DNA of 63,858 bases, filler included. It is 8 parts of 8 records of this genome, joined end to end, with 100 filler letters (N's around TTAATTAATTAA, not from the genome) between each part and the next. Parts side by side here need not be neighbours in the genome. Positions count along the whole stretch, not along the records: positions 1 to 10,187 come from SRR2962707_282; 7 more parts are not named here. One strand, given 5' to 3'. Positions 1 through 42,404 of this stretch are shown piece after piece. The notes under the pieces were generated by a model, which was not told where the DNA came from, did not search any database, and was given only the letters and a program-made list of their open reading frames with translations. Position 1 is the stretch's first letter. Each line of letters opens with the position of its first letter. The position numbers were made by a program, and so were the translations under genes.

Positions 1-472
1 CCCCCCCCCCCCCCCCCCCCTCTCTCTGCCCCCTGCTTCTCTGCCTCTGCATGTGTGCCTCTCTGTCCCGGCCTGTGTTTGTGCCACGTCGTCGGTGTTT
101 GTGTCCGTGCCTGCGTCATTGTCTGTTCGACTCACTCACTAACTCACTGGCTCTCTAGCAAGTGGATGTTGATTTGTCGACATGGGCCATTGGGCAATGC
201 ACTCACTTTGTTCCCCGGATTTTTTTCGTCGTTGGGTTTGTGCCTTCTGACTGCAACGAGCAAGGCTGGTCCACAGCGCAGTAACGGGAACGACCGCCCC
301 AAACGAATCTACAAACACGCACTCAGCAGAGACATACCTTCTCACACAGAGGCGTTCAGACAGACAGATATCGTGTAACCAAAACACACTCTCACTCTCA
401 CACACGCACACGCACACGCACAAACACAAGGGCTGCTCATTCCGCTGTATCTGGCGCGGGCCTCGATCGAAA

Positions 473-3400
473 ATGCCGTCGTCTCAAAAAAAGAAAAAAA
501 AACGATGCGAGGACGCTTCTACCGCCGCCGCCGCTGCTGCTACTTCTGCTGCTGCTGCTGCTGGTGGTGGCGCTGCTGCCCCAGCAGCAACCAGCAAAAG
601 CCAGCGGCGGGCAACGAGGAAGAAAGCACAGCAACGAGAGCTCGAACAGAGCAACGCAGGGAAGGTGAAGCTGCGCAGTGCCAGCGATACTATCAGTCGG
701 ATTCTGCACGACCCCTCGTTGCCCACTGCGTACTTCACTTTCGGGTACCTCGACCGCCACATTGGTATCGTTGAGAAGCCGCTCGCTGCAGCCAACTGGA
801 GTGACTCTCTGGATACGCTCGATCTTCGAACAACTTTCGCCGTGCCCCAGCACCGAGTGCAGTGGCTAAAGTGCAACGGTGAAGTCGTGTGGAGGAAGAA
901 GGATCGTTTGGACAGGTTTTGGGGAGGCAATGGGAATCATGGTCTAAAAGGTAAAGCCTGTTCCAAGGGGGCCGGCAGCAGAGCCAACAGCGGGCACGGT
1001 GGAATCCATGACGTGATTGCGCAGCAGCGAGAGCGTGGACTTATTCGCTCGGATGGGAGCGTTGATTACCAACTGCTGCGAAATGAGAGTGGGGAGGAGT
1101 CGGAAAAGAGAAAAAAGGGCAAGGACCACTCGCGCGCTAAGCCGAAAAGTCAACGGAAAATGGACGAAAGGGCAGAGCGTGCCCTTGCGCACGATATGCC
1201 AACGCATTTTTTTTGTGTGAAAGTTTCTGGGGCAGCGGTGCAGCGTGCTGTCTTTCGAGCGCAAAAGGCCCTCTGCGGTGCGTGAGCGTACTTGAAAAGA
1301 TTCAGTCACCACGCAACATTGGCAGATTTATGCTTTCAGCTTTTTGTTGCTCACTGTTCTGCCTGTCGTGGCGTTTTCATTGCAGTTGCGGATCAACGAC
1401 TGGAGGAGGGCTGTGCGGTGCTCCGATCGCTGCACATTACCATTGCGTTGGTGCGAGCGACCACATCTGAGCAAGTGGGCTTGGCTGCGAGTGTTTTGCA
1501 CAATGCATCCAAGCAACTGCGTGACGTTTTGAACCTCCTTGCTGAAGCCACACTAAAGTTTGTGGGAACAGACGATTTTCGTGGCAAAGTTGCCTATGCT
1601 CGCCTTGACGAACAGTCACAACATGCAATTGGCGCTCTGCACGAAGCACTTTGCAGAGATTTGCGTGAGATGGGAGTGCACATCACCGGTCAACATCGAG
1701 AGTTCAACCCTCACGTCACCCTTTGCAAGATTACAAGGCCGCTTGCCATAAGAAAAGTATCAACGCTGCCTGCAGCGGGTCGCCGAGCGGCAGCCAAAGC
1801 TTTTTATGGCATGGGCGACGCCGACGAGGGAGCTGAGCCCTCGCCAGACAATGCGAGCAGGAAAAGAGATGCGAAGTTGGTCGAATCAGCAGCCGGATGT
1901 GGCGCCAGATTGTTTCTGTGTCCCATGCAGAAGCCACTAGGAGACACAGGGTTTTATCCCATTATCGCAGAGACCAGCATTGCCGGAAACGGCACAGAAG
2001 AGGAAAACAACCCTGAAGTTTTGGGCCAAGTGCATGACGCTGATGGTGCTTGTTCTTTGACTGATCAAAGTGGCAATGACCACGGCAATGGTGGCGGTGC
2101 GGACGGCGTCAACGCGGGCGGGTTAGTGAGCGATGTCTCGATTCCTTTGGAGCAGCCTGTCACAGTGCTCTACGTCGGAGTGTTTCTAAGCGCTCGCTCT
2201 GCAAGCGAAACGCGATCAATGTGGCCGCCTGTGCACTCGCGACTGCCAGACGCCCCACATGTGACACTCGCGTATCAACCAACTCCGTCAACGTTTCAAA
2301 AGCACCAGCTTCCACAGCTTGGGCAGGTTGTTACGCTTCAGGCGTCAGCACCTGCGGCTAATCGCCGTGCTCAGATTGTCCTTTGCGAGATGGTGTCGAC
2401 AGAAGTGCCTGAAAGAGCACAGAGCACATCAAAACAAGACCCACAATTGGTTGACCCGCAACAACCGTTGCATCTGACGCTGTCACACTCTGAGCGCAGC
2501 ACGCCGCGAGACGGAATGATTCTTGCTGAGGAACGGCGAGCCAGTGCTGCTGCGAGGGGCGCGACGCAATCTTTTTCCGAAGAGCTGTTTATTGAAGGTG
2601 TGCTGGGAGCGATCGTTGCCCCCGTGGTGGAAGGTGTCGCACAGTCGTCAGCTGCCGATGTTGTGTTTGATCCATCGTTTTTCCACTCTGGACAACATAA
2701 AATTGTGGCTTGCAACAGTTCTCCAGGTGTTCACTCCACCGTGCCAACGATCGCTGCTAATGGTGAGCTTGACCGACCGTTGAAACGTCTTGCAACCCAT
2801 TGCCGCCATGTTTTTGTGTTTGATTTCGACCATACCCTCTTCAACACCCCCGATCCTGAGCACTTTGAGCAAGTTCACGGGCACGCGTGGCGTTCTCACG
2901 CTGCAACCGGGCATGCCTCATGGTCATGCGATCCAGTGTCGCTTTCAGCACCATTGCGGCGTGTAGGGCTTTCTCCAGGCCCGGGTCTCGCCTTCTGCTA
3001 TGACTGTGCTGCTCTGGGCGATTCAGTGACGCTGATTTTACTGACCGGGCGGCCTCGGGCCCTTGAACCTTTAGTGGCGGAGGTGCTTCGTGAGTTTGGC
3101 TTGGAACAACTGTTTCAGCGGCGTCTGTTTGTGCACGGCCTTGCCCGTGGCGGAAAGACATCCCATTTCAAGAGGCGGGCTGTGCGTGCACTGCTTGATG
3201 AATTTCAGACCCCACGGTCTCTCAGCAGTGGATCAGAATCTGAACCAGCAGAAGGCTTGCTCCAGTTTCATGTCGTCGATGACTTGAACGAAAATATTTC
3301 TGCCATGATGAGTGAAATGCGAGCGCATTTTGGCCACGCACGGACTGAATTAAGAGCAACGCTAGTTGGTTGTTCTAGCAGTGGCGGCGGTGGTAGTGCT

Positions 3401-5476
3401 TCGCTTGACAGCGCGACCGAGTCCACCCGTCTGAAGGGATGGGTACAGCTCTGTCGCCCATCCTTGTCGCCGAAAGTGCTCACGAAAACGGTAGTTCTGC
3501 CGCATGCGAAATCGGCCATTGAGCGTGCGCGACATCTATTTGGGAAAGTTTTCAGCGATCGATTTGAGAACTCTGCAAGGACACTTATGCGAGTCATTGG
3601 ACGAGAATGGCTTAAACTCCTTCGGTCGGCGGGCACAATTGATTCGGATGCTGACAATGAGATGCTCATTGCGGCACTTGTCCTGCCATTTGGGTCGTTT
3701 CAGCTCAAACGACGAAGTGATGTTGACGTTTGTCTACTGGGCGCCCCGCCAATTTCGTTCGTGACTGTTGTTTGGCCTCTGCTGCTTCGCATCAGAACAT
3801 TTGCTTTGCAGTTGACTGGCCAAGGTTCCCGTCTCAGCTCACGCATGCTGGTTCTTTTGCTGTGCTTGTCCTTGTGTCTGCCCTTGTGGTTCCGTGCATA
3901 CGAATGGCGTACAATCAGTTCCAAAGAAGGACTCCAGGCCCTCAGGTTTGCCCTGCAAAAGCGAGGTTTTTTGGTCTACTGGAGCGGTGACGGAGGGCGG
4001 CTGAGTTTGCTTCGTGCCAAGTGGCCAGGTGGTCGCCTCCTAGCTTGCAAAGACAGTTTAAACGACCAAGCCCAGCTTGAGGGTCTCCTTTCAGTCGAGT
4101 TTGACATCCTCTGCGCAACAGTGGACTCCCACCACTTTGCCAAGGTTATACGAGATTGGCCGACTGTTGGCCGCTGGACAATAGGATCTTTGAAGTGCGT
4201 GCCTGCAATGCAATTTCAGTTGTTGCTTTTCCGTTGCTGCCTCCAAAGTCTGATTGTTCCTGTCGCACGGCTGTCAGGCGGCTTCTGGAACGATCCACCT
4301 CCGAAGCGTCTAAAAATGCCATCGTTGGACCGCTGTTTGCATCCCGGTGCGGCGGAGGGCGGTAAGTTTTAAGTTTTTAATTCATTGTGGCTCGTTACTT
4401 TTGAAAATTGCTTGTTCATTTGTTTGAGCCATTACTGATGCCATGCACTGTTTTTGGCTGGTGGCTGCTCCTTCGTGAAAGGTCTGTCAACGTCAAAGAG
4501 CAGGAGCAGCGTATTGGTCTTCTTGGAGAAATTGTAGACGCGGTTGTCCTCTTACTCGCAGCCGCTGGCCTGCGTGGCAATGCGTTTCAGCTTCCGCGCA
4601 CGTTCCATCTCGTCACTCTTTTGTCGCAGTGGTTGGAAACTGTGAACATGGAGGTGTCCGGTGCAAGCGGTTCCCTCGCCACACTTGTGGCAGCACTCCA
4701 GTTCATCGTGGAACTTCCCTTGAAGCATTGGTGTTCGGTGTGCGGGCTTACACCGCATTGCTATGTGGAAAATGTCCGCGCCTTTCTGTCCGAAGTGCAC
4801 ACGCTTTTGGTAGGATACAGTTTGCGCGTTTGTTTTCTGGGCCTTTTCTGTTTCTCTTGTTTTTTATTGTTGCACGGTGGAATTGCTGACGTTGGACTGC
4901 ATTTTGGTGGTATTGCCGCTTCGTACTGTCCAGGGTGCGTGCGCTTCTGAGGCAGACATGGAAAACGCCTTTCTTGGGATGTGCATGGCGGGTGCTCAGC
5001 AAACAAGCACAGAGCTTGCGATAGAGGCGGCCGCTGCGCGCGCAGGAGCTCCCCTCCACACTCACTCGCAATCGCAAAATCAGCTTTGTGGATTTGTAGC
5101 AGTGGAAGTGATTGTTTTGCCAACAACAGCAAAATCGTGGCTGGAACAGCAGCAGCAGCTTTTTCATGACACATGCGTGTTGACGTGGTTGTTTCCGGGT
5201 TTTGTTAGAGCAATTGGGGACTGCACGGCGGTTGTTCCTGGCCTTGGCAGGTCGCGCCAGAGCTCAGCTAGCGACATCCAACCAGCAAATGGCCCTGAAG
5301 GCCTCCAAGTTGGTGGCAGTGACCTTCGAGGCGTGTATGCTTTTCGGATGGCCCGAGCGGCAGGTTTGCGAGGGCGAATTCGCGCCGCTTTTGAGGAGCA
5401 TGTCGTGACGAAGTCAAACATGAACACAAAACCACCGTTCTCTCTCACATTTACGCCACGGCCTCATGAAAGTTAG
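473..5476 (+). CDS. Multi-exon putative RNA end-processing/repair protein: MJ1316 (DUF504) + AKAP7-like 2H + second 2H phosphoesterase + HAD phosphatase + poly(A)-polymerase-like nucleotidyltransferase (LENG9-related N-terminus)
   Basis: MJ1316-like SDTISRILHDP..FTFGYLDRHIGIVEKP..VPQHRVQWLKCNGEVVW..RLD; PTHFFCVKV then LHITI/PHVTL; second pair PHVTL/LHLTL; FVFDFDHTLFNTP..LLTGR..VVDD (HAD); PFGSFQLKRRSDVDV and VEFDI (Pol-beta NTase). GT-AG intron 1278-1385 joins ORFs 473 and 1292 in frame; further introns are inferred downstream. Confidence 0.75.
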
Positions 5477-5689
5477 AGCTGCACTTGTGAATCAGAGGGC
5501 ACAATTTTGTGCTTTGCTGTGCGGGGGGAATGAAGGCATCACAGGACGGGACTATGGAACCGGTAAACCACATGGAGGTTGCTGGTTGATGATCACACGA
5601 CTAATATTTAAAAAAAAGATTTATACAGTGAAGAAACAACAAGTGCTGCGCTCGGGCATGCCCCCAGCAGCACAACACAGCTAGGGCAC

Positions 5690-8600
5690 TTAAACGCCGT
5701 TCTGCTGGGTTTCTGTCTGCTGAAAGGAAGGGTTTGATACTTGGCGGTGCGTGGTTGCGATGCTGCCAGCGGTTGAAGCACGCAGCTTCCCCATCCACCC
5801 TTTTCTGCTCGCACTGCGAGCAAATTCCGTTGAATTGGAATTGGTTCCCGTGGCTGCAGCGGATGAGGAACTACTTGAGCTGTAGCCGTTGTTGCTTGAC
5901 GACGAAGCTTCGATGGCTAAGCTGCTGCGGTTCGAGGCGTTGCTTTGAAGGCCAATTGCGAAGGGCCGTTCAAGATTATCAATGATATCAATCAGCGCAC
6001 TAAACGTTGGTCGCATGGAAGGTTCAGTGTGCCACATGGTTTGCAAAAGCGCATGAAAATCCGAGCTCAATTCCTCGGGTAAATGTGGTCGAAGATTGTG
6101 CATCAGGACCTGTGTTTTAGCAAACAACCACAAAAAGCGCGCTGAATGCACATTCGTTTTTGTGTGAGGTGCCAACCCGCCAACAGCTCAAAAACGCAGT
6201 CACCTTGACGATCAGAAGTCTTTCGTCGACGTCCGGAAAAGGAACGACTTGACGGTTGAACAAAGCTGCAACCATGAGTCCAAAACTGTACATATCCCAA
6301 GACTTGGCTAATGCCAGTGTGGCGGTCTGAACACCACCTTCAGGTGTGGAAGTTGGAGCTTCAGCCATACCATTTAGAGCCTCTGGGGGCATATACCTTT
6401 GAATTGAAAAGCCAGCAGCTCAATACTTGCCCGCAGACATTGGTTTTCGAAGAATCGCACGATCAAGTTAGGACTGAGTACGTACTGAACGGTTCCAATT
6501 TGCGAGGTCATCGTTCGCGTCGAGCTCAGGGATCGAGCAATTCCAAAGTCGGTCAGCTACAGGATTGGATATCGACCCATAAATAACACTGACTTCGGCT
6601 GTTGAGCGGAACAAAGCAATTGTAGGCACATCCAACGCATGGTACCCACCAAACAATGCCATCCGCCATCGAGAAGAACGTTTTGGAGTTTGATATCTCT
6701 GTGAACGAAATTTTCGCGATGAAGGTAGTGAATAGCAAGGGCAATCTCTCGAACCCAGCCGAAACGTTGCTTAAGAGTTGGCCCGCGAGCAAAGTCATTT
6801 TCAACATGTTGATCCAGTGAGCCTTGGAAATAAAAGCGCGATTGGACAAGGCTGGCAAGTGAGCTGCATACAAAGCGCAGGTCTGCAACAAGTATTTCCC
6901 TCGCACACGTGCGAGTGAGAACAAGGATCGGGTTGCAAAGCCGTACCGTTGTCGGCAAACTGAGTGACCATGAAGTAGCGTTCCACGGGAGTCCCGTCAT
7001 GCATTTGGATATGAAAGAAAACCCCAAGGAAGGGCACAATGTGTTCGTGGCGTAAATGCATGAGCACTGTCAACTCTTTAGCAAACTCATTGATGCCCTC
7101 GGAGGTTGCTACAATGTCCATCATTGCATATATCTCCTTCAATGCAACGGCTTGCTGTAGCGTCGCCCTTCGATTTAATGTGGACGTTGCAGTGCACTTA
7201 TAGACCCTGCCACCACCACCAGTGGCAATGACGGGTGAATGCGGGCCAAAGTCAATGCTTCCAATTGGAAGCAGCAGCTGTGCAAGGTCCTCTTCATCAA
7301 AGTAAGGTTGCAAGAGACGCAGCGTATTGTCTCGCCCCTTTTCCTGCTGCACCGCAAGCTTTCGCTTTCGTGCCCCGTTCCACGACGAAAAAGCGACAAT
7401 TGCAACAACGACGATGACGATGACCACCAACACAACCCAAAATGCATCTGGAGACAACGGTCGGCATGCGTCGAGGCAGGCTACTCCAACTGAGCACACC
7501 TGAAGGTCTTCCGCACAGGAACAGGGTAGGCGACTACAATCCCATTTACCACCGTTCGCATTGTCGGCACTGCTCATGTTGCAAGTGCCAGGCATGGATG
7601 TTGGCAAACTGCAAATACTTGGCGGAAGAACAGCATCAAAGTAGTTTCCCGAAATATCGAACGATGTCAGGAGCGCTAAGCTTCCAATGGACGCGGGGAG
7701 GGGTCCTAGAAAGTTCACAGGAGAGTATACACATTTCAGAACAAACGGCGCGGCTGTTGAAAAACCTACTGGTTGGGTTGGGCATGTAGCTCTACGCACC
7801 AGTGAACGTGTTGTGGGCAAGATTCAATGCCTTGAGGGACGTGAGGGAGCCCACTCCTTCAGGTACGGAGCCGGTGAAAGTATTGCGCCCCAAAGTAAGC
7901 GACTCCAAGTTTTGGAATTCGCCAATGGTAGATACAAGCGTTCCTTGAAGGTTGTTAGACTCGAGGTCCAAGTTGCGCAAATGAGACGCCTTGACACAGA
8001 ATTCATCTCCAAATTGTAGAGAAGCACGAGTGAGCTGATTGCTTGACAAAATTAGGCTTGTGAGCGCCATCGCGTAGGTCAAGCGATTAAATTGGTAACA
8101 CGGGAGCACCAGAGGTCCTGCATGATACGAAACAATGGAAAAGATGTCAGTGCCTTGGCTCAGACAATACCTATGACTGATTCGGAAACTTGACGCACCT
8201 GTCAGTAGATTGTCATTGAAGTCAATATTGCCAACAGCGGTTAGCCGATGCAACGACGACGGAATGGTTCCTGACAGTCGATTCTCGTGCAAAATTAGGC
8301 CACTGCCGTATGACTCAAGAGACTCAAGGCTTCCCAGCGACACAGGCAACGTTCCAGTCAAGTTGAGGTTCCCAAGATTGCTGCGCAAGTAGCAGAGCAC
8401 GATGGGAATGCGCAGCGTGCATGCGTCAACGTTAAGGGGAAGTGGTTCGGGTGCCTTGCATTGTGCAAAGTCCAGTTTTTTCCTTTGACAAATTCAGCAA
8501 CTTACAATCCAAACTGCACATCAGTGAGCGCTCCCAGTCCAGAATGAAGAGTGCCACTCATTTTCGGGCAATTAGCAATGAGCCTTTGTGTGAAACCACC

Positions 8601-10187: not shown

Positions 10188-10287
10188 NNNNNNNNNNNNN
10201 NNNNNNNNNNNNNNNNNNNNNNNNNNNNNNNTTAATTAATTAANNNNNNNNNNNNNNNNNNNNNNNNNNNNNNNNNNNNNNNNNNNN
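10188..10287. other. Artificial contig-joining spacer
   Basis: 44 N + TTAATTAATTAA (stops in all six frames) + 44 N. Confidence 0.97.
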
Positions 10288-17100: not shown

Positions 17101-20100
17101 CTTGCATTTCCATGGACTTCAGATCAGCCATTAAAGTTTGACATGTGACCGTGAGACCTTCTTTCACGAGCACTTCCTCCAGCACGCGCACCTACAGCAT
17201 GAACAAAGACAACTATTGGCACCACCAAATTGTCTCCAAACTTCTTCGATTCAGGTCAAGCAAATTAACTCACTTTGAAGCGCTGTCCAATGTTACTTGC
17301 GACCTTCAGTTCGAGCTGTTGTCTCATCAGTAGTCGATCAATGCGCATTCCATACATTGAATAGAAAGCCAATGGCAATGGACAGCTGAGCTGCGTGTCC
17401 GCTTCATCACCGCGAGGAACCTGCCGAAAGTACAACATTTAGCATACGAATAAAGTCGGTGTTCGTCTGCAAATACCTCAGCCCGAAGAAAACAGGAGCC
17501 TAATTGATACGCACATCATCGCCTCCTTCGTCAATGTCCAAATCCGCCGGTGCCCACACGTACACATTGATCGCCTCGTCGGGCCGCTGGAAGTGCCGGC
17601 CACCACCGAAGTAGTGACTAGGGTGAATGCGCTCGAGTAGCTGGCGTGCACGGTCATACGCTGTGATTCGACGCGTGAAATTGCTTGCGTATGGGTGCTG
17701 CGCCGTTTCATCTTTGTGCCGTTTTTGCTGCTGAAGCGCGTCTGTTTGGACACCTGTCCACGTTCAGACAAGTTGCTTGTGGGCAAACTATTTGATCAAA
17801 CGAGTGGCAGACACTTGTCCGCTTGCAAACGAACCGTGTGCGAGTTGCAGGGCTGGGGCCGCAAACAGTGCTCCATATGAGTTGTCTTCCGCCATGGTAT
17901 GCACCAGTTCTTTGACGGCGACCGGGATTCCACAACTCAGCTGATCAATAAGCTCAACAAGCGAGTCATCTGCAAGTACGAATGGCAACAGCCCGTCCCC
18001 CCGAAAGACGATGGCGCTATCATCACCATCATCTGCTCCCTCAGTTGCACTTGCGTTGTTGCTGGGCTTTAAGCCCATGACAGGCGCAGCAGTTGAACCT
18101 GAGTCAAAGTCGGCATGGTCGCCGAAATCTCCATCGTCTTCTTCTTCGTTCTTGCTTGAATCCACACCGCTTCCGGAACCCGACGACTCAACTTTTGCCC
18201 GGGCGGCCTTAGCAGCCTTAGCTGCCTTTGCAGCGTCACGTCGCGCCACTGTGTCTTGCAACACAGAGTCAACGAGCGCCCTCACACGCAGTCGGCACAG
18301 CGGGCCGATTCGAAATTGTTGCACAACGCCGGCCAGGGCCATGTCCTCACGCAGCTCCCTGTAGGACTGTATTATCACAACGTTCAGCAAAATAAGCAAA
18401 CCAATCCCGGCTGCAAAAACCCCCAATACAACCATGCCCCAAAAAGCGTACTTTGGGCAACGCAGGCATCACCACATCAATGAAGTGGTTTAACGGTCGC
18501 GTAGCAATCAGAAGTAGCATGTTTACGCTGCAAACGCGACGGTCGGTTTCATCAAAATAGAGCAGTGAATCTTGAAATGCAGCGGGCAGGAAATCGTCCT
18601 GTTGACAGGCATTTGACAGCATAAATGATGACCAATCTGCAAATCTGGCAATTGCGCGGCCGGTGACTGCAGTAGCACCTGTGCCACAACAGCTTACCTG
18701 CTCAGCAGGCAGTGACGCGGATGGAACTGAGGTCTCGTCGCTGCGCATGGGAAACAATCTCTTCCCGTTGGTTGCAAAGTCAAGGGCAACATCCCAAGAT
18801 GCGGGATCAATGTACCTGCCACGAAATTAGCCATGCATGGCGTAAGATATTAGTACAAGCTAGGAACACCTTCCAACGCGAGTACAGCAAAAAAAAAAAA
18901 CGGCACGAACTGGGCATCGTCAATTGCAATAACTGTTGGTCGAATATCGGCAATCATGCGCAGCATTGCAACCAACAGCCCTCTAACGATCTTCGCTGAT
19001 GCTTGCCCAGCCGGCAGCGCCCTAAATGCAAGTTGTGACGAAGTAAGTACCCTGTACATTCAATGCACAGCAATTGCGGCTCGAACCTGTGTGCAAAGCA
19101 TGCGCAAACCGCTGCGGACGGACCGGCTTTCGTCTGTGTCCGGGATCGCGTCCGCTGCTCCGAGAGGGAGCAGTTGAGCGAGCACTGGCAGCCAGGGACA
19201 AAGAAGTGGGTACTGCTCGCGGAACAGGGCCTGCAACACCTCACCTTCGTGGCACACTTGTCCGCGATTTCTACGCAGACGAGACTCTTCCGACAAAAAA
19301 TTCATCACAATCGTTCGCCAAACGCCCAGGTACAGCGTACGATAAAAGGGGTCACCTCCAGCACACAAACTGAGCGTATCAAGCTTCGTCAGCATGTCAG
19401 CGTTTGACTGTGAAATATCTCCGCGGGGTCGCCTCGTAAATGTCTCAAGTGCGTGAGTCAAAATGCAAGATTTCCCGCATCCAATAGGTCCCTCGAGAAC
19501 GACCACCGCGCCTTCCCAAGCTCTAGCCGACGGTGCACCGAGTGCACGTGGAGAAAAAGATCGTGCCGAGCTGTCGTTGCTAGAAACTTGACCTTCAGGG
19601 TCTTCGTCTTGTGAAGCTTCGTAGCCTTCGCATGGCAGCTCATCGTGACCCGAGATACAATCAACAAACACATCGTCTGACGATTCGCCGCGCCCATTTC
19701 CTCCAGACGTCGCCGTATTCCAGAGTGGCGCCACGCGTCGGAAGAAATTGGCCTGCAATTCCCAAATGGCCTGCAAATTGGTTGCAGCAAGTAAAAACCA
19801 ATGCTTGATGGGCAAAGCGGTTCAATAACGAACAAGTTGAATAGTGACAAAAAGCAAAGCCCTGCAAATACGTGCCTGGGCCGCATACCCCTGGTAGCTC
19901 TGAAGCTCTGCCCACTGACTTGAATGCGCAACAGTTACACGAAGCTCAGACTTGCCTTGAAAAAGAGAATCGCCCTCGAGCCCAACAACGTTCCGTTCAT
20001 ACAACAGGACAGCATTGCAAAAGTGTTGCATCCAGGTTGCGGGAAGTTCCTTTGTTTGTGACTGGTGCTGTGGCTTTTGTGAACCGACTGCTTTTGCGGC

Positions 20101-20107: not shown

Positions 20108-20207
20108 NNNNNNNNNNNNNNNNNNNNNNNNNNNNNNNNNNNNNNNNNNNNTTAATTAATTAANNNNNNNNNNNNNNNNNNNNNNNNNNNNNNNNNNNNN
20201 NNNNNNN
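20108..20207. other. Artificial contig-joining spacer
   Basis: N44-TTAATTAATTAA-N44. Confidence 0.97.
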
Positions 20208-20343
20208 AAAAAAAAAAAAAAAAAAAATATTAAAAAGAAAAAAAAGAGAGAAAAGAAAACGAAAAACAGACAAGCACGGAGGAAAAAGCGGGTCTGTCTG
20301 TGTCTGTGCGCTGCCTGCTGCACTGTCTCGACGTCGCGCGGCA

Positions 20344-23581
<3,238 letters not shown>

Positions 23582-25387: not shown

Positions 25388-25487
25388 NNNNNNNNNNNNN
25401 NNNNNNNNNNNNNNNNNNNNNNNNNNNNNNNTTAATTAATTAANNNNNNNNNNNNNNNNNNNNNNNNNNNNNNNNNNNNNNNNNNNN
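25388..25487. other. Artificial contig-joining spacer
   Basis: N44-TTAATTAATTAA-N44. Confidence 0.97.
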
Positions 25488-25719
25488 CTCTGTCTGTCTG
25501 TCTGTCTGTGTATGTGTGTGCGTGCGCGCGAAAACTTTCTGTGTGCTGATGGCTGCTGTTTCTAGAATAAACACAGCGGAAACTTGAAAAATAAACGTTG
25601 GCAAATAAATGAGTGAGTGGTATGAGTGGTATGTGCACGCTGGTTAGTTGTGAGCACAACTAACTGTTGAATGACGGCACCACTGTCACAGCCCTGAGAT
25701 AGGGCCTGACGCACGTAGG

Positions 25720-28700
25720 TTGAGAGAAATGCATGTTCGATTCTGTGGAGTTCCACGGCAGGGCTTTTGGATGCTCCACGGCAACGCTTCAGCGCTCGAA
25801 GCGTTGTTCCCGTGGGTTGCAGGAGGGGTGGCGCCTGTGTACAACTCTACTTGGGCTGCTCGAGACAGCAACCCCATTTTCCAGGCTGGACCGTCGTCAT
25901 CGTCGTCGGCTTTGTCAGCTGGGGAGGACTGGGAGCTCACTGGTTTCATGGCCGACCTTGCGGTTAACATCATGTCGCAAGAAGCTCTTCGTGACTTCAC
26001 ATTCAGTGTGTTCTTTTTCCCAACGTATACGCAATCGCTGTATGCAACGGCAAAATTGAACATGTGTGACATGACTCTGGCTCCCTTCACAGTCACCCCG
26101 CATCGAGAATATTGTGAACCTTTCTCACTCTTGAGTGGTGTTGAGGCGTGCACGAACCCGTTGACCAATACTTCAGCGCCGAGCGACTCTGATGCGTGCT
26201 GTGCCCGTTTCACCCCCCAGGTTTTAGAGACAACCGTCGACCTTTTGCTCCGTGCTCAACCAGACGTGAGCCTGATGTCCCAGATAGGCATTGATGGTAA
26301 CGTTGGGAACTTGTTTCTTGCACTCTTGCTGCTCGAAATTATCATCGCGCATCTGGTTTGGCTCACTGAGATTCTCAACAACAAAAGTCATCAATTCAGC
26401 CGTCAATATGTCACTGGAATAGCGAGTGCCTTGTACTTTGCTTTGATTACGATCACCACCGTTGGATATGGTGACACAGTCCCCGTTACAGCCTTGGGGA
26501 AGCTTATTACGATCGTTGGTTTGATTGTTGGCGTTGTCATCACGGTTTGTGTCGAAAATTCCTGCAGCTTGTGTTCACCCACAGATTTCATTCTCAGTTT
26601 TGGAAGTGGGTTTCATCATTTCACTGTTACTGACACCTGTCTTTGGTCTTTGTGCTACGTCAGGCACTGATGACAGGTACCATCGCCAGCAACCTCAATG
26701 CGTATCGACTGGATGCACAAAGGTATCAGATCAACTCCATGGGAGACATCCAAGAGTTCGTATACCACGCCCGTGGCTTATGCTTTCTGTCTGTCCCTTC
26801 GCGCCTTGAGTCACAGGCGAGGAAACGTACTAAGACAGTTTTCACTTTTTTTCCTCACATACATACCTCTGATTTGGCTCTTGGATTTTTGTTTCGCAGG
26901 GGCATGGATATTTGCACGCCTTCATCACTTTATCTTGATTTTCCTGCCTTTGACATGGCAGTAAGTTCCATGTTTGTTTGCAACTCAGCTGCGTTCGAAT
27001 TGTCGACCTTCCAGATGCCTGCTGGTAAACTAATTGGATGTGCAACTACGAATTATAGGACATTTTTGTACCCACGGTGGAGGATCGACAAGATGCTTTT
27101 GCATCCTGTGTGGAGAGTCTGAACAATGGCGATGTTAGTGCGGTCGCCAATGACCGCCCAGTACTTATAAATTATCTACTTGGCTTGCCGGCAGAAGAAG
27201 CAGCTGGCTTGCGCATTGTGGAAGGGGCGAACATCGTACATCTTGCCCCTGCCATTTCACAACAGGCGGATCCGGTATGAAATAGAGGTTTTGCTGAGAG
27301 CCCCAAACCTCATAATTTGAGCATGTGCTGTTTGTTTTCTCCCGATCATGATCTTAGAACTGTTGTCTGTAGACATTGCAGTCACTTCTTCAAACAGCGT
27401 ATGCAAATGCTCTTCGGGATCCTCTGTTCTATTACCCCGCTGTTAATAAATATTTTGAAGCTGTTCGTATTACAAAATGTTGTCATTGCCATTACATGCG
27501 CGCTAGCTGTTGTTTAGTATTGATGTGGTTGCTATTCAGGATCATGAACATCAAGACGAAGTGCTGTACAACGATTCCCTAAATCTAGTGACCTTTGGCA
27601 TCGTCATTGGATATTTTTCAATTCTTGTCATTGTGGGGATCGTTCATTGTGTAAAGGGCGGCGGGTAGGTACCTGGAATCAACTTGGATCACTCGCTCAC
27701 TTGTTGTGATGCTCACGCGTTTCTGAGCGCCCACATCTTTACCAAACAACCACTTCTACTTTACACAGTCTTCATTGCCATGCCATGTTGAATCTTTCAG
27801 ACTTCGACGAGTGTTTTTACGGTACAAACGAGGAGCCCGAGGTCTCAACAACTTGGTCACAATGGAAAAAGCACGTTAGGCATAGCATCATGTTTACTGC
27901 GCGTTCCTTGCTTGTTCTGGCACGTGCAATGACTTTTGACACTGCAAATTGTTTGGAATTGAAATTAGGCCCTGGCAAAAACGCACATCAACCGCAAAGT
28001 TTCTCGTCGAGACACGGTGACCAAGAAGCAATTGTCAAGCGCAGACAATTTCTCGACGGAAGAGCAGGTTTGTTGGGGGAGGACAGGCGTGTTTCAACTA
28101 TTCATACCATATTTATGCTACGGATGTTTCTCATGGGCACATCTATGGTGCGGTGTGCAAGATCCAAATGATATTTGAAGGCATCGATCTGGACGGCAAA
28201 GGTTACATCAAAAGTGACGACGTCATGCAGGTGCGTTGAGCTGTCTGGAGCACCATCTTGGACAGCTAACGGAGAACGCATGTTGTCGTTCACATATACT
28301 GTGCTTGTCGCCATTTGCTGGCTGCATGTTCATTGTTTTGTGTAGCTTATTCGCAGTGTAGTCAACAGCCAGGGTCTCAACACAAAGTCGGTGCGTTAAT
28401 TAAAGTCCCGGTTGAGGTTGAAACTTCTGGTGGTTGATGGTTCCACTGAATTTTCCGTTGCTCATTGCTAGGACAATGCCAAAGAGGGTCTTGACAACGT
28501 ACTCCAAGTAAGTTTGACACTACTTCCGCTGAGCTATCGTCTTTCACTGCAAGACTGCTTGGTCTCCTTTTTTTTCACAACAATGATCAAACCGGTACAT
28601 TATTAAATGCAACTCGCTGATAAAGATCAAGCGATTTTTGCGGCACACTATCGAAAGTGACCTAGATGGAAAAGTTTATCTTGATGAATTCCGCATAGCG

Positions 28701-29751: not shown

Positions 29752-32700
29752 TCAACGCTTTTTTCTCGCCAAGAAACGGGCACGAGCAGCAGCAAGTGCA
29801 GCGGCCTTGTTGTCGGCAGTGATGGCCAAGTCTGAAGCGGTGACTGTCGATGCATCTGCACCGTCGGTTGCCACTGCGGTTGTTATCTGACAAAAGACAG
29901 TCATGGGTTCTTACGCAAGCTACAGATCAAGACAAGCAACGAAGCACACATTGAATTGATGTGCACACGAAACACGTTCTTTCTTCAAACCTGAGGACCT
30001 CCTTTTAACCTTCCCTGCGGCTTTCTCTGCAGGCTCCGAGCATCTGCGCTGCTTGTCGCGGCAGCACTTGACGAGGGGCGCGGGCCAACGGTAGCAGGAG
30101 CAACTGGCGCCACTCGTCCAGTGAGTTTGTAAACGTCTGGCCGCCCAATTTGCTTGACATGCTTCTTGATCCATCTTCGACGATCCAAAGCATAATCAAA
30201 AGAGAGATCAAACATATCTTCCACCAGCCACGGTACTTTCGAAAAACTGATACATGTGACACGCACCGCTCTTCGACGGAGATAACATTCCGCAGAAACG
30301 GCTTCGCGGTCACAATGAGCTCCATATACACAACGCAAGGCGGTGCACTCTGCAAAGTGCAATTTGGGTGCAACTGGCATATTTTCATGTCATAATCGCT
30401 TCCACTATCGCTGGAATTCAGGGTTTTCAGAAGGCCAAAAGGTCATGCAAAATATGTGTAAACTGCGCACCCGTCGCAAGCAGCCTTCGCAGTACAAACA
30501 CGTACCCATACTGAACTGTTCGATATGTCGACTGTTGACAGTTCAGGGCTGCACGCATGAAAAAACCGCTACAAATGGCTTTGCGGATATTCTTGGTCTT
30601 TGAGCGAAATTCAAAAATTCCTCCAGCGCTTTGACTTGAGCTGCGACTGCGTACACTGGTACTCGCACCCTTGCTGGTGGCAAATTCTCGGAATTGCCTA
30701 TCGGCAATGATATCTTTGAGTTGCTTACGAATGTTGTGAGCCAAGCGCATTGCGCGCATGTTGACAAAGTTGGCCTGCCATATCAAAAGGGCAAGTAGCG
30801 TGCAAATAAGATCTAAGTGTATCCAGTCAAAGCAAGAGTGTACTTGGCTCGGTTTAGTCGAACAAACCAGGCACCATTCCATTGATGCCCCCCGGCGTAG
30901 CCACTCGTTGTACACCGCCAAAAAACTTAGATGATCACCGTCTGGGTGCGATAGTCTCTGGCGAGCTTGAAAAGCCTTCTTCACATGCTGATCGTACCGG
31001 GCATCGCCGCCACCACGTCGTTGGGTCAGCACGCTACCACCTTTTTGCCTGCGGGGTGTGTACCATATCTCCTCTGAGCTCAGCATCGCCGCGATGGTCA
31101 GAACATCTTCCACACAGTCGAACTCGACGCTTGCAACTATCATCCGTGCAAGACATGGCTCCACCGGAAACAATGCCATGAGGCGGCCCAGCGACGTCAC
31201 TCCCCCGCTCGAATCAAGAGCACCAAGCTGGTGAAGCAATCGCAAAGCATCAAATGTTGCTTCAGGGAGAGGAGGATCCAAAAAGTCAAAACCGAGAACA
31301 TCGTGTACACCCAATATCTTCAGCTCGAGCACGGTGCTGGCAAGGTTGCAACGCTGAATTTCCGGGACAGTGACCGTGGCAAAATTTGCGTATGTTTCTT
31401 TTGGATATATGCGGTAGCACTTCCCCTGGCTCGTCCGCCCCGCGCGACCAGCACGCTGTTGTGCGGCAGTTTGTGATATCGGAACAACAACAAGCGCGTC
31501 CATACCGCGGTCTGGACGATAAATCCGTTGCTTCACAAAACCGGGATCAACAACGTAACGAACACCATCGACGGTGACTGAGGTTTCTGCGATATTGGTG
31601 CACACAACTACCTTCCGCACATGTGCTGGAACGTCATCAAACGCTCGTCGTTGCTCGTCGCCTTTCAGACTGCCTGCGAAATCAGAGAAGCAATTAGACC
31701 ATGAAAAGAACGCGTGACCGCTGAAGTACGGTCCAGACAAACTGTGTTCATAATCTAGCAAACGAAGCGAAGCCAAGTTGCACGAACCATATAGAGGAAT
31801 AACTGTCATAACCATCCCATCCTTCCCAGTCGCCGATTGTGCGCGCGCCCTGATCTGTTCACATGCTTTTTCAATTTCATCTTGGCCGGTCAAGAATACA
31901 AGAACATGCCCTTTCTGCTCTAGTGCATGAATTTTCATCACGATGTCCACAGCTGCCTCAAGCGTCGTGCCTCGATTGCGGTAGTGCGTGCGAGTATGAA
32001 AGAGCTGCACATCAAATGTGCGACCTGGCACTTCGATCACTGGGCAATTATCAAAAAACGCAGAAAACCGTTTGGTATTCAGCGTTGCCGAGGCAACGAT
32101 AAGCTTCAAGTCTGGTCGGCGCTCCTTCAACAGTGCCTTGAGCAGACCGAATAGAATATCGGTACTCAAGCTGCGCTCGTGTGCCTCGTCTAGCACCACG
32201 AGCGAGTAGTCCTTCAGCAACGGGTCACGCAAAATTTCACGAACCAGCACACCATCAGTCATGAACTTGATGCGTGTGTTGGGTGACGAGTTGTCATCAA
32301 ACCGAATCTGGTATCCGACCGTCTTGCCGAGGCTCGATCTCATCTCTTTTGCAACACGCGATGCGACTGTCACCGCTGCCACTCGACGAGGCTGAGTAAC
32401 TGCGATAAGGTTGCGCCCACCTCTGTGTTGATTTCTTCCGCTATCTCTCCTGCCTCCTCGGCGGTCGCGACTGAAGTCCTTCGACGACGACACACCAAAG
32501 TCCTTGTAGAGCATCTGGGGAAGCTGCGTGGTCTTGCCAGACCCTGTTTCACCAACAATGACAACTACTTGGTTGTCGCGAACTGTGTTTCGAATTGTGT
32601 CTTCAGCATCGTAAATGGGCAGTTCCCGGGCTTTGCGGCGGATTTGAGTAACCTCGTCGTCGGCAGCAGCAGCAGCAGCAGCAGATGCAGAAGATGAAGC

Positions 32701-33180
32701 AGCACGTGCTCTCGAAGTGCTTCCATTCTTCGTGCTTGAGGCAGCGCCTTTGGAACGAGGGCGAGAGCGAGAGCGAGAACGAGAACGGGAAGAAGACTGA
32801 GATTGGGAATTTGAGCGAGAATATGATCCCGAACTCGATGATCGAGACCCACGAGATCTTGATCTCGATCTCGAACTCGAACTCGACGAGCGCGACGACG
32901 ACCTTGGGCTGCGGCTCGAAGTAGTTTTAGAGCGTGTCGAGCGTGAGCGTGTCGAGCGTGAGCGAGATCGACGGCGATCTCGTCGTCGATGTGGTCGACT
33001 ATCTGTTTTCTCATTCCGACGACGTTGCGACGTCGTTCGCGACTCTGACCTTCGCTGCGTGGGCTCCTCTTCCCTCCTGCTCCTCCGCTCGGGTGGTTCC
33101 CTTCGGTCGCGGTTCCGACTTCGACTTCGACTTCGACTTCGACGTCGAACTGAGCGAGACTCAATCGTCGAGTCTGGCAT
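29752..33180 (-). CDS. DHX40: DEAH-box RNA helicase, DHX40-like, with RS-rich N-terminus, multi-exon
   Basis: GETGSGKTTQ, TQPRRVAA, LDEAHER, SAT, TNIAETS, QRAGRAGR, HA2 region; C-terminal AARARFLARKKR* resembles the DHX40 tail. Family is certain, subfamily is inferred. Confidence 0.8.
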
Positions 33181-33359
33181 GTTTCGAGAGTGTCGCTTGT
33201 GTGAGTGTGGTCTGTGCGCGTGCGAGTCGAACTACTCTATTCTACCCAGCCCGACGACCGACTACAAGCGCCGGCTGTGCTTCAGACTGTTTCGAATGGA
33301 TGAATGAATGAAGCGGCCGTCCCCCTCCACTTTCCGGCGCAAAAAAAAAACTCACGAAA

Positions 33360-33494: not shown

Positions 33495-33594
33495 NNNNNN
33501 NNNNNNNNNNNNNNNNNNNNNNNNNNNNNNNNNNNNNNTTAATTAATTAANNNNNNNNNNNNNNNNNNNNNNNNNNNNNNNNNNNNNNNNNNNN
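33495..33594. other. Artificial contig-joining spacer
   Basis: N44-TTAATTAATTAA-N44. Confidence 0.97.
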
Positions 33595-35468: not shown

Positions 35469-38400
35469 TTAAAAGTCGAGTGCATCTGAAAAAGTCTGGC
35501 TTCCAAGTGACTCGAATAGCCCGTCCTCGTCAAAGTCGTCGTCTAAATCCATTGAATCATTGTTTGCGTCAGCTCCCGAGGAACTGCTGGTGCCGCCTTG
35601 TTCACTCTGATCGCTGCTGGCGCAGTTCGTCGCTGGCTCAGCACGAGCGCTCGCACTTGCCGAGTTGCCGCATGCTCCAGCACTACTGCTTGCGCCTGAT
35701 TGCCCCGTGTTTACCTGGGCTGATTTCGGCGCAAGTGGCGGACGTCCACCTGACGGCACTTCTGTGGCTTGGTGTGACGCTTTGGCCTGCGGGGCTTCGT
35801 GCCGTCGCATGCGCTTGTGCACTGGGGCACGAAACACTTTCACAACTGCGCCACCACGAGTTACCATTGTGGGGGCACGTTGCAGACCATCTCCACCGGA
35901 AGAAGATCCAGATGACTCGGCAGGAGCAGATCCCGCTTGCTGCCCATTCGCAACGCGATGGCCTTGGGGCAACGGGACTTTCAACTTCTCAGCGCCACCA
36001 GTAATTTTGACAATCCAGTTTTTGTCTTCAGCAAGGCCGATAAGATCTTGCAAAAGAGCAACCCCCGACTCGGCTAGGGCTTCCGCGGAGCCAAGAATGA
36101 TCAATTTGCTCTTGGCGCGTGTTACGGCGACATTGAGACGGCGTTTATCCCGGAGCAACGAACCCACCCGGCGGCCACTCGTTGGGCTTTCCACTTTGGG
36201 TACATCTTTGTCGGCTCCACTGGAACCACAGCTGGTCGAATTCGCGTGCTTGGACGATGCACTCCCCGCCGGCGGGCATACGAGGGACAATATGATCACT
36301 TCTTTGTCACGACCCTGATAACTATCGACCGTCATTGTTTCCAAGTCCTTGAAATCTTCGCCGACTGCACGCCGCAAAAGCTTCAGTTGGTTGCGATACC
36401 TGCCGTGGCAAACGACAAAGAAGACAACCAGGTGTGAATGCATTGGCAAAATCAAATCACCGAATTGTTCTGGGGGGGTCACAAACACCGTTTGCCTTGC
36501 AGAACGTACGGAGATATCAACCCAATGTCGGCCGGGGCAACACCTGCGAGGACAAGGGCGCGCACCACACTTCGCGCAGCATACGCTTCTGGCTTGTCCA
36601 TGTTGGACCATGCACGCCGCAAGCGTGAGGGAGACGGTTTGAGAGGCTGCTTGATCGGGGTTGCAGCAGCAGACGAAGCGCGCGATGAGGCCGCCGATGC
36701 TTCGATATCCAGGAATACAACAGCACGATTCGGACAGATCGCTTCCGCGATCCAATGAGACGGCCGCATGCTATCGACGGAGGGCGAAGTGCCGAGTACG
36801 CTAGACTCAGACTCGTGCAACGCCACGCTTCCATTCACAGTAGCGGCAACATCCCGCAAGGCGTACACACGCTCGATGTGTGGAAGCTGAAGAGCCCTCG
36901 ACGCGACCTCTGCTGTGCCGCAGCAGAGTTGCCCGTTGTACACGAGCGCATTGCAAACGGACATGATATCTTCATTCATGCGATACCTGCAGCACGGGAT
37001 CACACATGAAACAAAACAAAATCAATACGAGCGCCAGAGCAAACTGGTTTCCCACCGCACAACAAGAAACCCCAGCACCAAACATCACCAGACTCACTGG
37101 TGGGTCAGAGCAACCTTAGCGCCTTCGTGATCCGTGTCGCACAAACGCTTAAAGAGTGACACGTCCATGCCCCCGGCAATAGCACGCGGATTCTTTACCA
37201 AGGGAGGCAGCTGCTTGTGGTCACCAACGAGAACAAATGTCTCACAAGCCCGAAGTGGGCCAAGAACAACAGGCTCTGTGATCTGGCCAGCTTCGTCCAC
37301 AATGCAAAAGTCGAAGCGCCGACGGTCGAAAAGAGGGTGCCGCACCCCAAGACAAGTTGTCGCGACAAGGTGAGCCCCCTCCAACAGGGTTATGTAGCGT
37401 TGAAGTTCAAAAGCACTGTCCTTTTCGGCTGAAGTTGCTGGGGTCAACGGGAGGGGTGACGTTCCTAGGTCACTGGGGCTGCGTGCATCGTCGTCTGTGT
37501 CGTCAGCGAGCTGTTCCTTGTCTTGACGTAATCGACGCTCAATGCAGAAACGGCGCACACGTCGGTGCACGCGGCGCTCGGTCCCAATTCTTACAATGGA
37601 ATACGGCTCGTCAACGCAAGCGTCATCAACAATCTTCATGAGAAGATTGTCGACTCCGGTGTTCGTGTAAGACGCTACCAGAACCGACTTCCCCAAGAAA
37701 AGCAGTACACGCACAAGAAAACTAATTAGTCGTGTTTTGCCCGTGCCAGGCATTCCCTCGACAAGCATGTAGTCCCGAGCAGCAAGTGCTTGACAGACAG
37801 CACGTTGCTGACAGCTGTTCATCGACTCGAACTCTTGGCTTAATGCTGTGCGTATGCGCTGAAGTTGTGTGCCAGACATGACAGGCCAATATGAAGGGGT
37901 TGGCGGTTGCTTGAAAGTCGTGCTCCAGGGAAACCTGTCTCTTTCCAACAGCGCAGAGGGGAAAAACTGAGGCTTGTCAAGATGCACCACAAGTCGCCTT
38001 CGTTTGTCGTCCACGCGACGCCCAGGCAGCTGCGGCACAGGGTTCGCTTGAGTGGATCCAGCGCCCCGCATTTGCATTTTGTCCCAGCTTTTAGTTGCGG
38101 CCACGCCAGGAACCGCAAACAACCGCGTGACATTGTCCATCGCCAGTCGCATGCTGGAGTAAAACTCATCTTTGTCCAATCGCCACCGCAGGACCATTCC
38201 ATCTCCCGATTTGCAGCTGCTACGAGATGACTGAGAGTCTGCACCATTGCTTGTAAATTCTGCAGGAATATGGGTGCGAACTTGGAGCTTAATACTGTCT
38301 TTTTGCAAAGCTTTGACTGTCCCGATCGCAATTCCATACACTGTGTGCAAAGGGCGCTGTAAAAGGAAGTCCCCCTTGTCGGTACGATTCGACGCCGCGG

Positions 38401-41400: not shown

Positions 41401-42172
41401 TAGCTTCAGCAACTTCAGCAACTGCTTTTGTTGGATCCCAATCATCGCATGCCGCAGCATTTTTTAGTCTCTCGTCTGTGCCACCACGTGGCGACGATGC
41501 AAACTTCTGCAACGCCTGCCGCAGTAATTCTTCTTCAACCTCTGCGTCTGCTGAAGTGATTCCCCGTTGTGAGTGTGGCCGAGCGCGTCCACGTCTCTGG
41601 GCAGACACTCCATTGGCTGAGTGGTCACTATTGGTGTTGGACACTCCCCCTGCCGCCTTACGCGACGTGTCGCCGGCAAAGCCAGTCCAATCAACACCGC
41701 ACCGCGACTCAAGAGTCGGATCTGGCGTTTCAGGAGATACCTGGGATGGTATTCGCACCCTGCTTCCTGAGGTTGCCATCCCACCTGCGGTCGCGGCAGA
41801 GTTTGCCGGCCGGCCTAAATTATTCGGTCCCGCCCGTGCCTGGGCAAGGCGGGAGCGTGACCGTCCGCCATCTCTCGTCGGGGTAACCAGGGGTGAGCGT
41901 CGGTGTGCACGCGGTCCATTCACTGGTGCAACGGAGGATGACGGCGACTGCACGCCTCTATTGCTCCGGCTGAGTGACAACGAGCTTCTGCGACGCGCAT
42001 TCAACGCGGCCGGAAAGGTGGACGCAGCGTTCGGCAGTTGCTGCAGCAGTGCCGCGGGGAGAGCAGGTTCTGGAGGCCGCGGCCGGCTTCCTGTCGGTAG
42101 GGGACGTCCTGCAGAGCTTGATCCCCGGCCCCCAGCCGAAGGGTGCGGGGAGCGTCGCCACGTTCGCCCCAT
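35469..42172 (-). CDS. DNA2: DNA2 nuclease/helicase with long low-complexity N-terminus, multi-exon
   Basis: CMRKAVL and CSRCYQREVC (Fe-S ligands), GTLKHEMF, WSPKWGLKGFIDAT, PLELKTG, EGMPGTGKT, IVDEAGQI, VGDHKQLPP, YRMNEDIM, TVDSYQGRDK, RRLNVAVTRAK. Confidence 0.93.
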
Positions 42173-42304
42173 GAGGAGGCGAATAAACAAGTGGGCTCCG
42201 TGAGCTTGCCACTCCCCCCACTAATTCCTGTTCAAGTGCCTGCCATAGTCGCTTGCTTGTGGCCAAGCTTCCAACGCAAAAGCAGCAGCAGCAGCAGCAG
42301 CAGC

Positions 42305-42404
42305 NNNNNNNNNNNNNNNNNNNNNNNNNNNNNNNNNNNNNNNNNNNNTTAATTAATTAANNNNNNNNNNNNNNNNNNNNNNNNNNNNNNNNNNNNNNNN
42401 NNNN
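42305..42404. other. Artificial contig-joining spacer
   Basis: N44-TTAATTAATTAA-N44, flanked by (GCA)n and (GTG/GTT)n repeats. Confidence 0.97.

Follow-up and report, generated by a model that had tools for sequence, protein, structure and literature searches.

A putative 3′-end-only variant of the Swiss Army Knife RNA repair family, lacking kinase and R3H domains, in a protist-like eukaryote

A stretch of DNA of 63,858 nucleotides (63.9 kb; the window, which means the whole stretch that was analyzed) from a protist-like eukaryote carries near its start a gene for a predicted RNA repair protein. The locus is one nuclear, intron-bearing gene with a single spliced product of 1,468 amino acids (aa). 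The product contains an MJ1316 domain, an AKAP7-like 2H phosphoesterase, a second 2H phosphoesterase, a phosphatase of the HAD class with a DxDxT motif, and a nucleotidyltransferase (NTase) that resembles poly(A) polymerase (PAP); the catalytic residues are intact, and the protein nests among relatives that carry a polynucleotide kinase. Judged by domain content and order, it is homologous to the RNA repair proteins known as the Swiss Army Knife (SAK, extended LENG9-like) family and is a reduced variant rather than a typical member, being classed as reduced because the usual family feature, the polynucleotide kinase, is absent. The SAK family is widespread and already described computationally; what is new, as far as the sequences tell, is the combination without kinase and without R3H domain. 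We consider it probable that such a protein heals RNA 3′ ends bearing a 2′,3′-cyclic phosphate and then tails them, without 5′ phosphorylation or ligation.

Gene structure and splicing

The coding span runs from 473 to 5476 on the plus strand, as do all features of the gene described below. The six exons (473-1277, 1386-3756, 3919-4194, 4278-4361, 4482-4809, and 4934-5476), when joined, form a single open frame from the ATG at 473 to the stop codon at 5474-5476. The five introns, all GT..AG, are at 1278..1385 (108 nt), 3757..3918 (162 nt, in frame and free of stops, inside the palm domain of the NTase), 4195..4277 (83 nt), 4362..4481 (120 nt), and 4810..4933 (124 nt). A first-pass annotation, made from the sequence alone, had bounded the locus at 473 and 5476, in exact agreement with the spliced coding sequence, whose ATG starts at 473 and whose stop codon ends at 5476. 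When open reading frames (ORFs) are listed before splicing, the ATG at 473 opens a frame up to an in-frame TGA at 1283-1285. Downstream of the TGA the same frame continues as an ORF of 1,028 codons (1286..4372), and two more ORFs, in other frames, lie further on. The motifs of the 2H, HAD, and NTase-core domains fall within this 1,028-codon ORF, in keeping with the annotation, which had placed them in one continuous frame.

The splicing was derived from a single public run (X1), the nature of which is only guessed to be RNA. X1 contains 83% of the sampled words of the repair-gene locus. One of its contigs, 5,293 nt long and placed on window positions 1-7000, spans 583..6111 with five joints, all GT..AG. 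Intron bounds were taken after small shifts of the cut at each joint (intron 1, for example, from joint 1276/1385 cut at +1), and a script confirmed both the splice sites and the open frame. The contig bridges all five introns, and the earlier proposal of a single polypeptide from one spliced transcript holds in this respect. The splicing is also backed independently of X1, because it brings family motifs back in register (SK.A..GP.F in exon 4 and GNA...RTFH in exon 5), and because the NTase family profile gives an unbroken match (aa 992-1322), crossing four exon junctions, only when the exons are joined. The unspliced ORFs match that profile in separate pieces.

Two other readings of the ORFs can be set aside. 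Stop-codon read-through, or a variant genetic code, is ruled out because the TGA at 1283-1285 sits in intron 1, which is removed in X1. A bacterial operon is ruled out by the GT..AG introns and by the eukaryotic housekeeping genes elsewhere in the window. The sole public protein call at the locus, P0001 (984 aa, from a 1.13-Mb contig), is a plain ORF call that begins within exon 2, reads through intron 2, thereby acquiring 54 spurious residues in the NTase palm, and then runs into intron 3 (window 4195-4369). The present gene model corrects this call.

Domains and catalytic residues

The N-terminal 63 aa are basic, Ala-rich, and of low complexity, and a KKKKKR stretch is present at the N-terminus. 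They are followed by the MJ1316 domain (662..913, aa 64-147), a predicted reader of RNA 2′,3′-cyclic ends. Pfam finds it in the window ORFs (PF04457, aa 68-142 of exon 1, E 1.9e-17; 64.1 bits, the cutoff being 26.3), and so does a family profile (94 bits, aa 64-147). The family profiles used throughout were made by cutting a 32-sequence alignment (A2) by domain, with the window row excluded, and the spliced protein was scored with the database size Z set to 1e6. The first 2H phosphoesterase (1193..1990, aa ~241-470) spans intron 1 and has an insertion at aa 390-442. Its two HxT motifs are LHITIA at 1430-1447 (H285/T287) and PHVTLC at 1709-1726 (H378/T380). Pfam on the window ORFs identifies this domain as AKAP7_NLS (PF10469, E 2.9e-12), and the family profile matches it with 122 bits over aa 241-389, plus a C-terminal piece at 443-464. 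In a phmmer search of PDB sequences the domain matches AKAP18/AKAP7 (E 4e-6), and no other domain of the protein matched. The MJ1316 and first 2H calls of the first-pass annotation were thus recovered by Pfam directly.

A low-complexity linker (1991..2149, aa ~471-523) of ~55 residues, in which Gly, Asn, Asp, and Glu are abundant, separates the two 2H domains; in relatives it is the site of a polynucleotide kinase of ~160 aa. The second 2H phosphoesterase (2150..2620, aa 524-680) is similar to CNPase and to the cyclic phosphodiesterase (CPD) of Trl1, and carries the HxT motifs PHVTLA at 2255-2272 (H560/T562) and LHLTLS at 2468-2485 (H631/T633). The HAD phosphatase (2798..3325, aa 740-915) has the motif FDFDHTLF at 2819-2842, and its key residues are D748, D750, T752, T822, K864, D900, and D901. 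Both of these domains are recognized by family profiles (69 bits over aa 524-680 and 91 bits over aa 740-915, respectively) and in an AlphaFold2 model. The palm and central domains of the PAP-like NTase (3554..5035, aa 992-1322) span introns 2-5 and are matched by their family profile with 140 bits over aa 992-1322. The NTase motifs, PFGSFQL at 3686-3706, SDVDVCLL at 3716-3739, and VEFDILCA at 4094-4117, supply G1038, S1039, D1047, D1049, and D1121. The three profile scores uphold the second 2H, HAD, and NTase assignments that had been made from motifs. The profiles match the five modules in the order MJ1316, AKAP7-like 2H, second 2H, DxDxT HAD, and nucleotidyltransferase. The rest of the protein is a divergent C-terminal tail (5036..5473, aa 1323-1468), in which neither profile nor Pfam finds an R3H domain.

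The motifs of both 2H domains, the HAD, and the NTase are all where the first reading had put them, and the Pfam and profile scores show that they are not chance matches. At each invariant or near-invariant catalytic column of A2 (32 sequences), the window protein carries the consensus residue: H285, T287, H378, T380, H560, T562, H631, and T633 in the 2H domains, and D748, D750, T752, K864, D901, G1038, S1039, D1047, and D1049 in the HAD and the NTase. The A2 profile also links the family to proteins of known structure. Against PDB sequences, it matches AKAP18/AKAP7 (E 5.9e-43); through the kinase of the relatives, Pnkp1 (7e-11), mammalian PNKP (~5e-7), and T4 PNK; and through the NTase, yeast Pap1 residues 18-241 (1.5e-5), Pla1 (6.6e-5), URT1 (3e-4), and Mnt (7e-4). 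A smaller, 14-sequence profile (A5) gives weak matches (Mnt 7e-4, PAP 0.04), those of A2 being stronger.

Structure models

The second 2H and HAD domains of the window protein itself (2138-3355, 406 aa, 32-row alignment) were modeled with AlphaFold2 at a mean predicted local distance difference test score (pLDDT) of 82.7. In a Foldseek search of PDB with this model, the catalytic domain of mouse CNPase is the top match (E 1.5e-4), with many similar entries, and a fungal Trl1 kinase-CPD entry (6u05) follows at 7e-4. VIA-align, run against 48,161 representative chains, pairs model residues 4-173 with mouse CNPase (Z 12.9, root-mean-square deviation (rmsd) 2.8 over 145 residues), and residues ~220-395 with the 3′-phosphatase of T4 Pnkp (5uj0; Z 12.0, rmsd 2.4, 125 aligned). 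Next for the HAD region are Pnkp1 from the Pnkp1/Rnl/Hen1 repair complex (4xrp, Z 11.9) and T4 PNK (Z 11.6). Generic HAD enzymes are close behind (Z <=10.8), and the ranking of the Pnkp phosphatases is suggestive rather than exclusive, because other HAD phosphatases reach Z 10.8.

The NTase fold was modeled on P0148, a HAD-NTase-R3H fragment from the 90% cluster of the relative P0002 (pLDDT 91.8, predicted template modeling score 0.85). Foldseek matches this model to bovine PAP (3.9e-13), human PAP gamma (3.6e-12), Pla1 (9.7e-12), and yeast Pap1 (1.3e-11). Over canonical PAPs as a whole, the matches cover ~460-530 columns with E values ranging from 3.9e-13 to 4.6e-10. Class I CCA-adding enzymes and the uridylyltransferases Cid1 and URT1 are far behind, at ~3e-7. 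Domain by domain, structure prediction agrees with the first reading of the motifs: the model of the second 2H and HAD domains matches CNPase and the T4 Pnkp phosphatase, and the NTase of the relative matches canonical PAPs.

A reduced member of a widespread family

SAK RNA repair proteins were reportedly described by comparative genomics by Burroughs and Aravind (Nucleic Acids Research, 2016). A passage of a later paper cites that study (PMC6514570). The title of the Pfam family PF10307 (HAD_SAK_1) reads 'HAD domain family 1 in Swiss Army Knife RNA repair proteins', and the first-pass annotation had mentioned such fusions. A word-indexed search gives three distant full-length relatives (23-25% identity). 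A HMMER search with exon 2 against 1.84 billion representatives gives 135 proteins at E <=1e-3, 32 of them at E <=1e-10. Pfam run on 29 long relatives finds AAA_33 and AKAP7_NLS in all (29/29), MJ1316 in 27/29, HAD_SAK_1 (PF10307) in 20/29, R3H in 16/29, and tRNA_lig_CPD (PF08302), which falls over the second 2H, in 10/29. Named members come from the oomycete Aphanomyces euteiches (annotated as 'hypothetical' or 'RWD domain-containing protein'), the choanoflagellate Salpingoeca urceolata, and the sponge Oscarella lobularis ('uncharacterized protein').

An architecture census was taken over 35 full-length representatives having both MJ1316 and NTase domains. The order MJ1316-2H-kinase-2H-HAD-NTase-R3H is found in 18/35, and the same order without R3H in 11/35. 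The kinase is kept in 32/35 and R3H in 18/35, and a further 3/35 lack the second 2H only. P0071, P0102, and P0107 (3/35) have neither a kinase-profile match nor the second 2H, and what they retain is a decayed kinase without Walker A. The combination of the window protein, MJ1316-2H-2H-HAD-NTase, is seen in 0/35. The first-pass annotation had not recognized this combination. The exact architecture is indeed absent from the census, but its novelty was overstated, the protein being a reduced form of a widespread family.

The modules that are missing were sought individually. The family kinase profile has no match in the spliced protein, and there is no Walker A motif between the 2H domains (aa 390-523). 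A GLARGGKT sequence (aa 853-860) was considered as a kinase remnant and ruled out, since its position falls within the HAD domain and no match to the kinase profile is seen. Six-frame ORFs of the whole window contain no family-type kinase or R3H; the top kinase-profile match there, at 19063-19821, reaches 12.7 bits and covers a P-loop only. The R3H profile does not match the spliced protein, and Pfam finds nothing in the ORF 4814-5473. Likewise, Pfam finds no zf-CCCH in exon 1 (E up to 1), no EEP family in four ORF pieces (E up to 1), and no RNA ligase family in any exon ORF, and the N-terminal RWD domain of some relatives is not present in the window protein.

In a tree of 37 sequences (FastTree, 819 concatenated domain columns, midpoint root only), the window protein is sister to P0139 and P0005 with a support of 0.968, and both of these carry the kinase, the second 2H, and R3H. 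Because the window protein nests among kinase- and R3H-bearing relatives, the simplest reading is that kinase and R3H were lost secondarily in its lineage. Fragments from closer relatives, P0129 (76% identity over the matched stretch), P0033 (64%), P0039 (60%), and P0021 (39%), keep the catalytic motifs; they do not reach across the kinase position. Elsewhere, in the sister group formed by P0071, P0102, P0107, and P0049, Walker A is lost, later kinase motifs are kept, and a second 2H goes undetected, so that kinase function seems to have been lost there independently.

Other relatives have gained rather than lost modules. They include an RNase_T exonuclease (P0005), a NUDIX domain (P0016), RWD and CCCH domains, and RNA ligases of the Rnl2/DraRnl type (PF09414, in P0036 from Aphanomyces and in P0139) or the Rnl1 type (PF09511, in P0047). 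P0139, 2,241 residues long, has two ligase stretches. Because members add exonuclease, NUDIX, ligase, RWD, and CCCH modules, the SAK family is best regarded, on domain composition, as a shuffled toolkit for RNA ends, of which the window protein is the 3′-end-only version.

Proposed function and alternatives

With the kinase lost and no ligase in the fusion, the variant would act on 3′ ends only, healing and tailing rather than sealing them. In the scheme that we favor, the MJ1316 domain would dock the protein on an RNA 3′ end with a 2′,3′-cyclic phosphate. The CNPase/Trl1-CPD-like 2H would then open the cyclic phosphate to a monoester (a 2′-phosphate in CNPase and Trl1), while the AKAP7-like 2H may share in the ring opening, add a second specificity, or cleave 2′-5′ linkages. 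The T4-Pnkp-like DxDxT phosphatase would strip the phosphate via an aspartyl-phosphate on D748, leaving a 2′-OH and a 3′-OH. Finally, the PAP-like NTase would extend the healed 3′-OH in a template-independent manner, and what results would be a tailed RNA, not a rejoined one. Every chemical step here is one that we infer, as are the substrate, the identity of the added nucleotide, and the role in the cell.

Several points weigh against this scheme. The recognition of cyclic ends by MJ1316 is, to our knowledge, a published prediction echoed in the Pfam name and not a measured property. The literature searched (without supplementary files) has no activity, substrate, or product data for any family member, and database names of members are 'hypothetical', 'uncharacterized', or 'RWD domain-containing'. 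Pfam on the window ORF returns neither HAD_SAK_1 (PF10307) nor an NTase nor the second 2H, PF12710 being sub-threshold at E 0.034. Because the direct search missed all three, these calls rest on family profiles and models. The three-domain PAP fold was modeled on the relative P0148 and not on the window protein, whose NTase is split over five exons, and the last 146 aa of the window protein match no family profile. The kind of run that X1 represents is a guess, and its contigs are assemblies that may be chimeric. The contig of the repair gene extends into the 3′ part of the convergent neighboring gene and is therefore uninformative on transcript ends. The search for a separate family-type kinase covered the 63.9-kb window, and that for a ligase domain covered the gene.

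The last point bears on the strongest alternative, that healing followed by sealing has been retained, with a 5′-kinase and an RNA ligase supplied in trans by separate genes and the NTase as an accessory, for example in restoration of tRNA 3′ ends of the CCA type. The family is linked to sealing because some relatives carry fused RNA ligases (P0036 and P0139 with PF09414, P0047 with PF09511), and the kinase persists in 32 of the 35 full-length representatives. The halves comprising the second 2H, HAD, and NTase also occur as separate proteins (P0037, P0041, P0063, P0065, and P0127, which may be fragments). However, the window holds no family-type kinase or R3H (the best candidate being the P-loop-only match of 12.7 bits), and Pfam finds no ligase domain in the gene. 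We give this alternative a low probability, but negatives that cover the window and the gene do not disfavor it.

A much less probable alternative is nucleotide signaling, in which the first 2H would degrade 2′-5′ oligoadenylates or cyclic nucleotides, with the NTase as the enzyme that makes or modifies them, in immune signaling or counter-signaling. The first 2H is nearest to AKAP7/AKAP18, and the central domain of AKAP7 is reported to cleave 2′-5′ oligoadenylate. NTases of the Pol-beta fold include signal synthases, and one of them, the cyclic-oligonucleotide synthase CdnC, appears in the Foldseek list of P0148 (E 7.7e-7). However, the E values of canonical PAPs are better than that of CdnC by some six orders of magnitude, and their alignments take in all three PAP domains. 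The remaining modules are, moreover, all of RNA-end types (MJ1316, the CNPase/Trl1-CPD-like 2H, and the T4-Pnkp-like phosphatase), and what relatives add is a Pnkp-type kinase, R3H, CCCH, and RNA ligases.

Least probable of all is that the protein is a decaying remnant, which, having lost kinase, R3H, and CCCH, is no longer selected for catalysis and serves no coherent function. In its favor, three family-typical modules are absent, the first 2H has an insertion, the linkers are of low complexity, the C-terminal 146 aa are divergent, and module decay does happen in the family, because the kinases of P0071, P0102, P0107, and P0049 have visibly decayed and lack Walker A. Against it, splicing yields an open frame of 1,468 codons and is seen in a contig, every catalytic residue checked in the four enzyme domains equals the family consensus, the second 2H and HAD region models confidently, and the fragments P0033, P0039, P0021, and P0129 (the last at 76% identity over the matched stretch) keep the same motifs.

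Healing followed by tailing thus remains the preferred reading. A more tentative extension of it, which we think less likely to be right than wrong, is that deletion of the 5′-kinase from an ancestral protein that healed and sealed gave rise to a dedicated, single-polypeptide pathway for healing and tailing of 3′ ends. If so, one enzyme would recognize RNAs cut by metal-independent ribonucleases, which leave 2′,3′-cyclic ends, open the cyclic phosphate, remove it, and add a poly(A) or other tail. Through the tail, fragments would be marked for decay or functional 3′ ends rebuilt; such a route of RNA surveillance is not known from any eukaryote. With kinase, R3H, and ligase absent and all 3′-end modules and their catalytic residues kept, the variant is a simpler object for studying the role of the PAP-like module after healing. 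It lets one ask whether 2′,3′-cyclic-phosphate ends can go to tailing instead of ligation.

Surroundings of the gene

Immediately downstream, a convergent gene on the minus strand (5690-8493) encodes leucine-rich repeats and a Tyr/Ser-Thr protein kinase domain, and has CT..AC joints between 6107 and 6946. The X1 contig of the repair gene reaches 6111; either the two genes overlap in their 3′ regions or the assembly joined them. The window starts with a run of 20 C, and position 33 is where five X1 contigs stop, each with a loose poly-C tail. In another contig, 10 letters ahead of position 232 are unmatched, upstream of the CA/CT-rich 5′ leader of the repair gene.

The other genes of the window are of ordinary eukaryotic housekeeping types. 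They include an MCM7-like gene (20164-21420, plus strand), a DEAH-box helicase gene (30430-33231, minus), a Dna2-like nuclease-helicase gene (35472-42220, minus), and a Beclin/Atg6 gene (49324-50706, minus), and a two-pore-type ion channel domain is encoded at 25675-26667 (plus). No named protein exceeds 49% identity to the MCM7 exon, and the matches are a mixture from green algae, fungi, and protists. Seven pairs of 44-N runs, with 12 bases between the members of each pair and spaced ~6.5 to 10 kb, occur at 10188-10287, 20108-20207, 25388-25487, 33495-33594, 42305-42404, 51024-51123, and 57598-57697. They look like masking or scaffolding, not biology.

Comparison with known systems

The window protein is colinear with the SAK family in its MJ1316, AKAP7-like 2H, CNPase-like 2H, DxDxT HAD, and PAP-like NTase domains. 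It differs in having no Pnkp-type P-loop kinase between the 2H domains and no R3H, CCCH, or RWD domain. With vertebrate LENG9-type proteins, whose architecture we take to be a CCCH zinc finger followed by MJ1316 and an AKAP7-like 2H, it shares the N-terminal pair of MJ1316 and AKAP7-like 2H. Unlike them, it lacks CCCH and has in addition the second 2H, the HAD phosphatase, and the PAP-like NTase. By these features it is not a strict LENG9 orthologue, having no CCCH, and neither is it a Trl1-type ligase.

The likeness to the fungal and plant Trl1 kinase-CPD module (KIN-CPD) and to vertebrate CNPase lies in the second 2H, which is modeled with the CNPase/Trl1-CPD fold; in relatives the likeness extends to a kinase directly upstream of this domain. 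A passage on Trl1 describes KIN-CPD as a healing cassette (PMC7145591), and the CPD product is given in passages of two papers as 3′-OH, 2′-PO4 (PMC7145591, PMC11571804). CNPase has also been compared, in a passage of another paper, with tRNA healing enzymes (PMC5434554). In contrast to these proteins, the window protein has no kinase or ligase domain, and its identity to CNPase is 11-17%.

The HAD domain is structurally nearest to the DxDxT 3′-phosphatases of T4 Pnkp and bacterial Pnkp1, with the nucleophile motif intact, at an identity of 11-16%; the kinase half of those enzymes is missing from the window protein. T4 Pnkp, as a passage on the enzyme describes, heals 2′,3′-cyclic ends with its DxDxT phosphatase via an Asp-phosphate intermediate (PMC3592404). 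The NTase shares with canonical PAPs the G-S pair, the D-x-D motif, and the third Asp, and its palm and central parts match the family profile. The identity to canonical PAPs is 11-15%, the fold being seen on the relative only, and unlike those enzymes the window NTase is fused behind RNA-end-healing enzymes.

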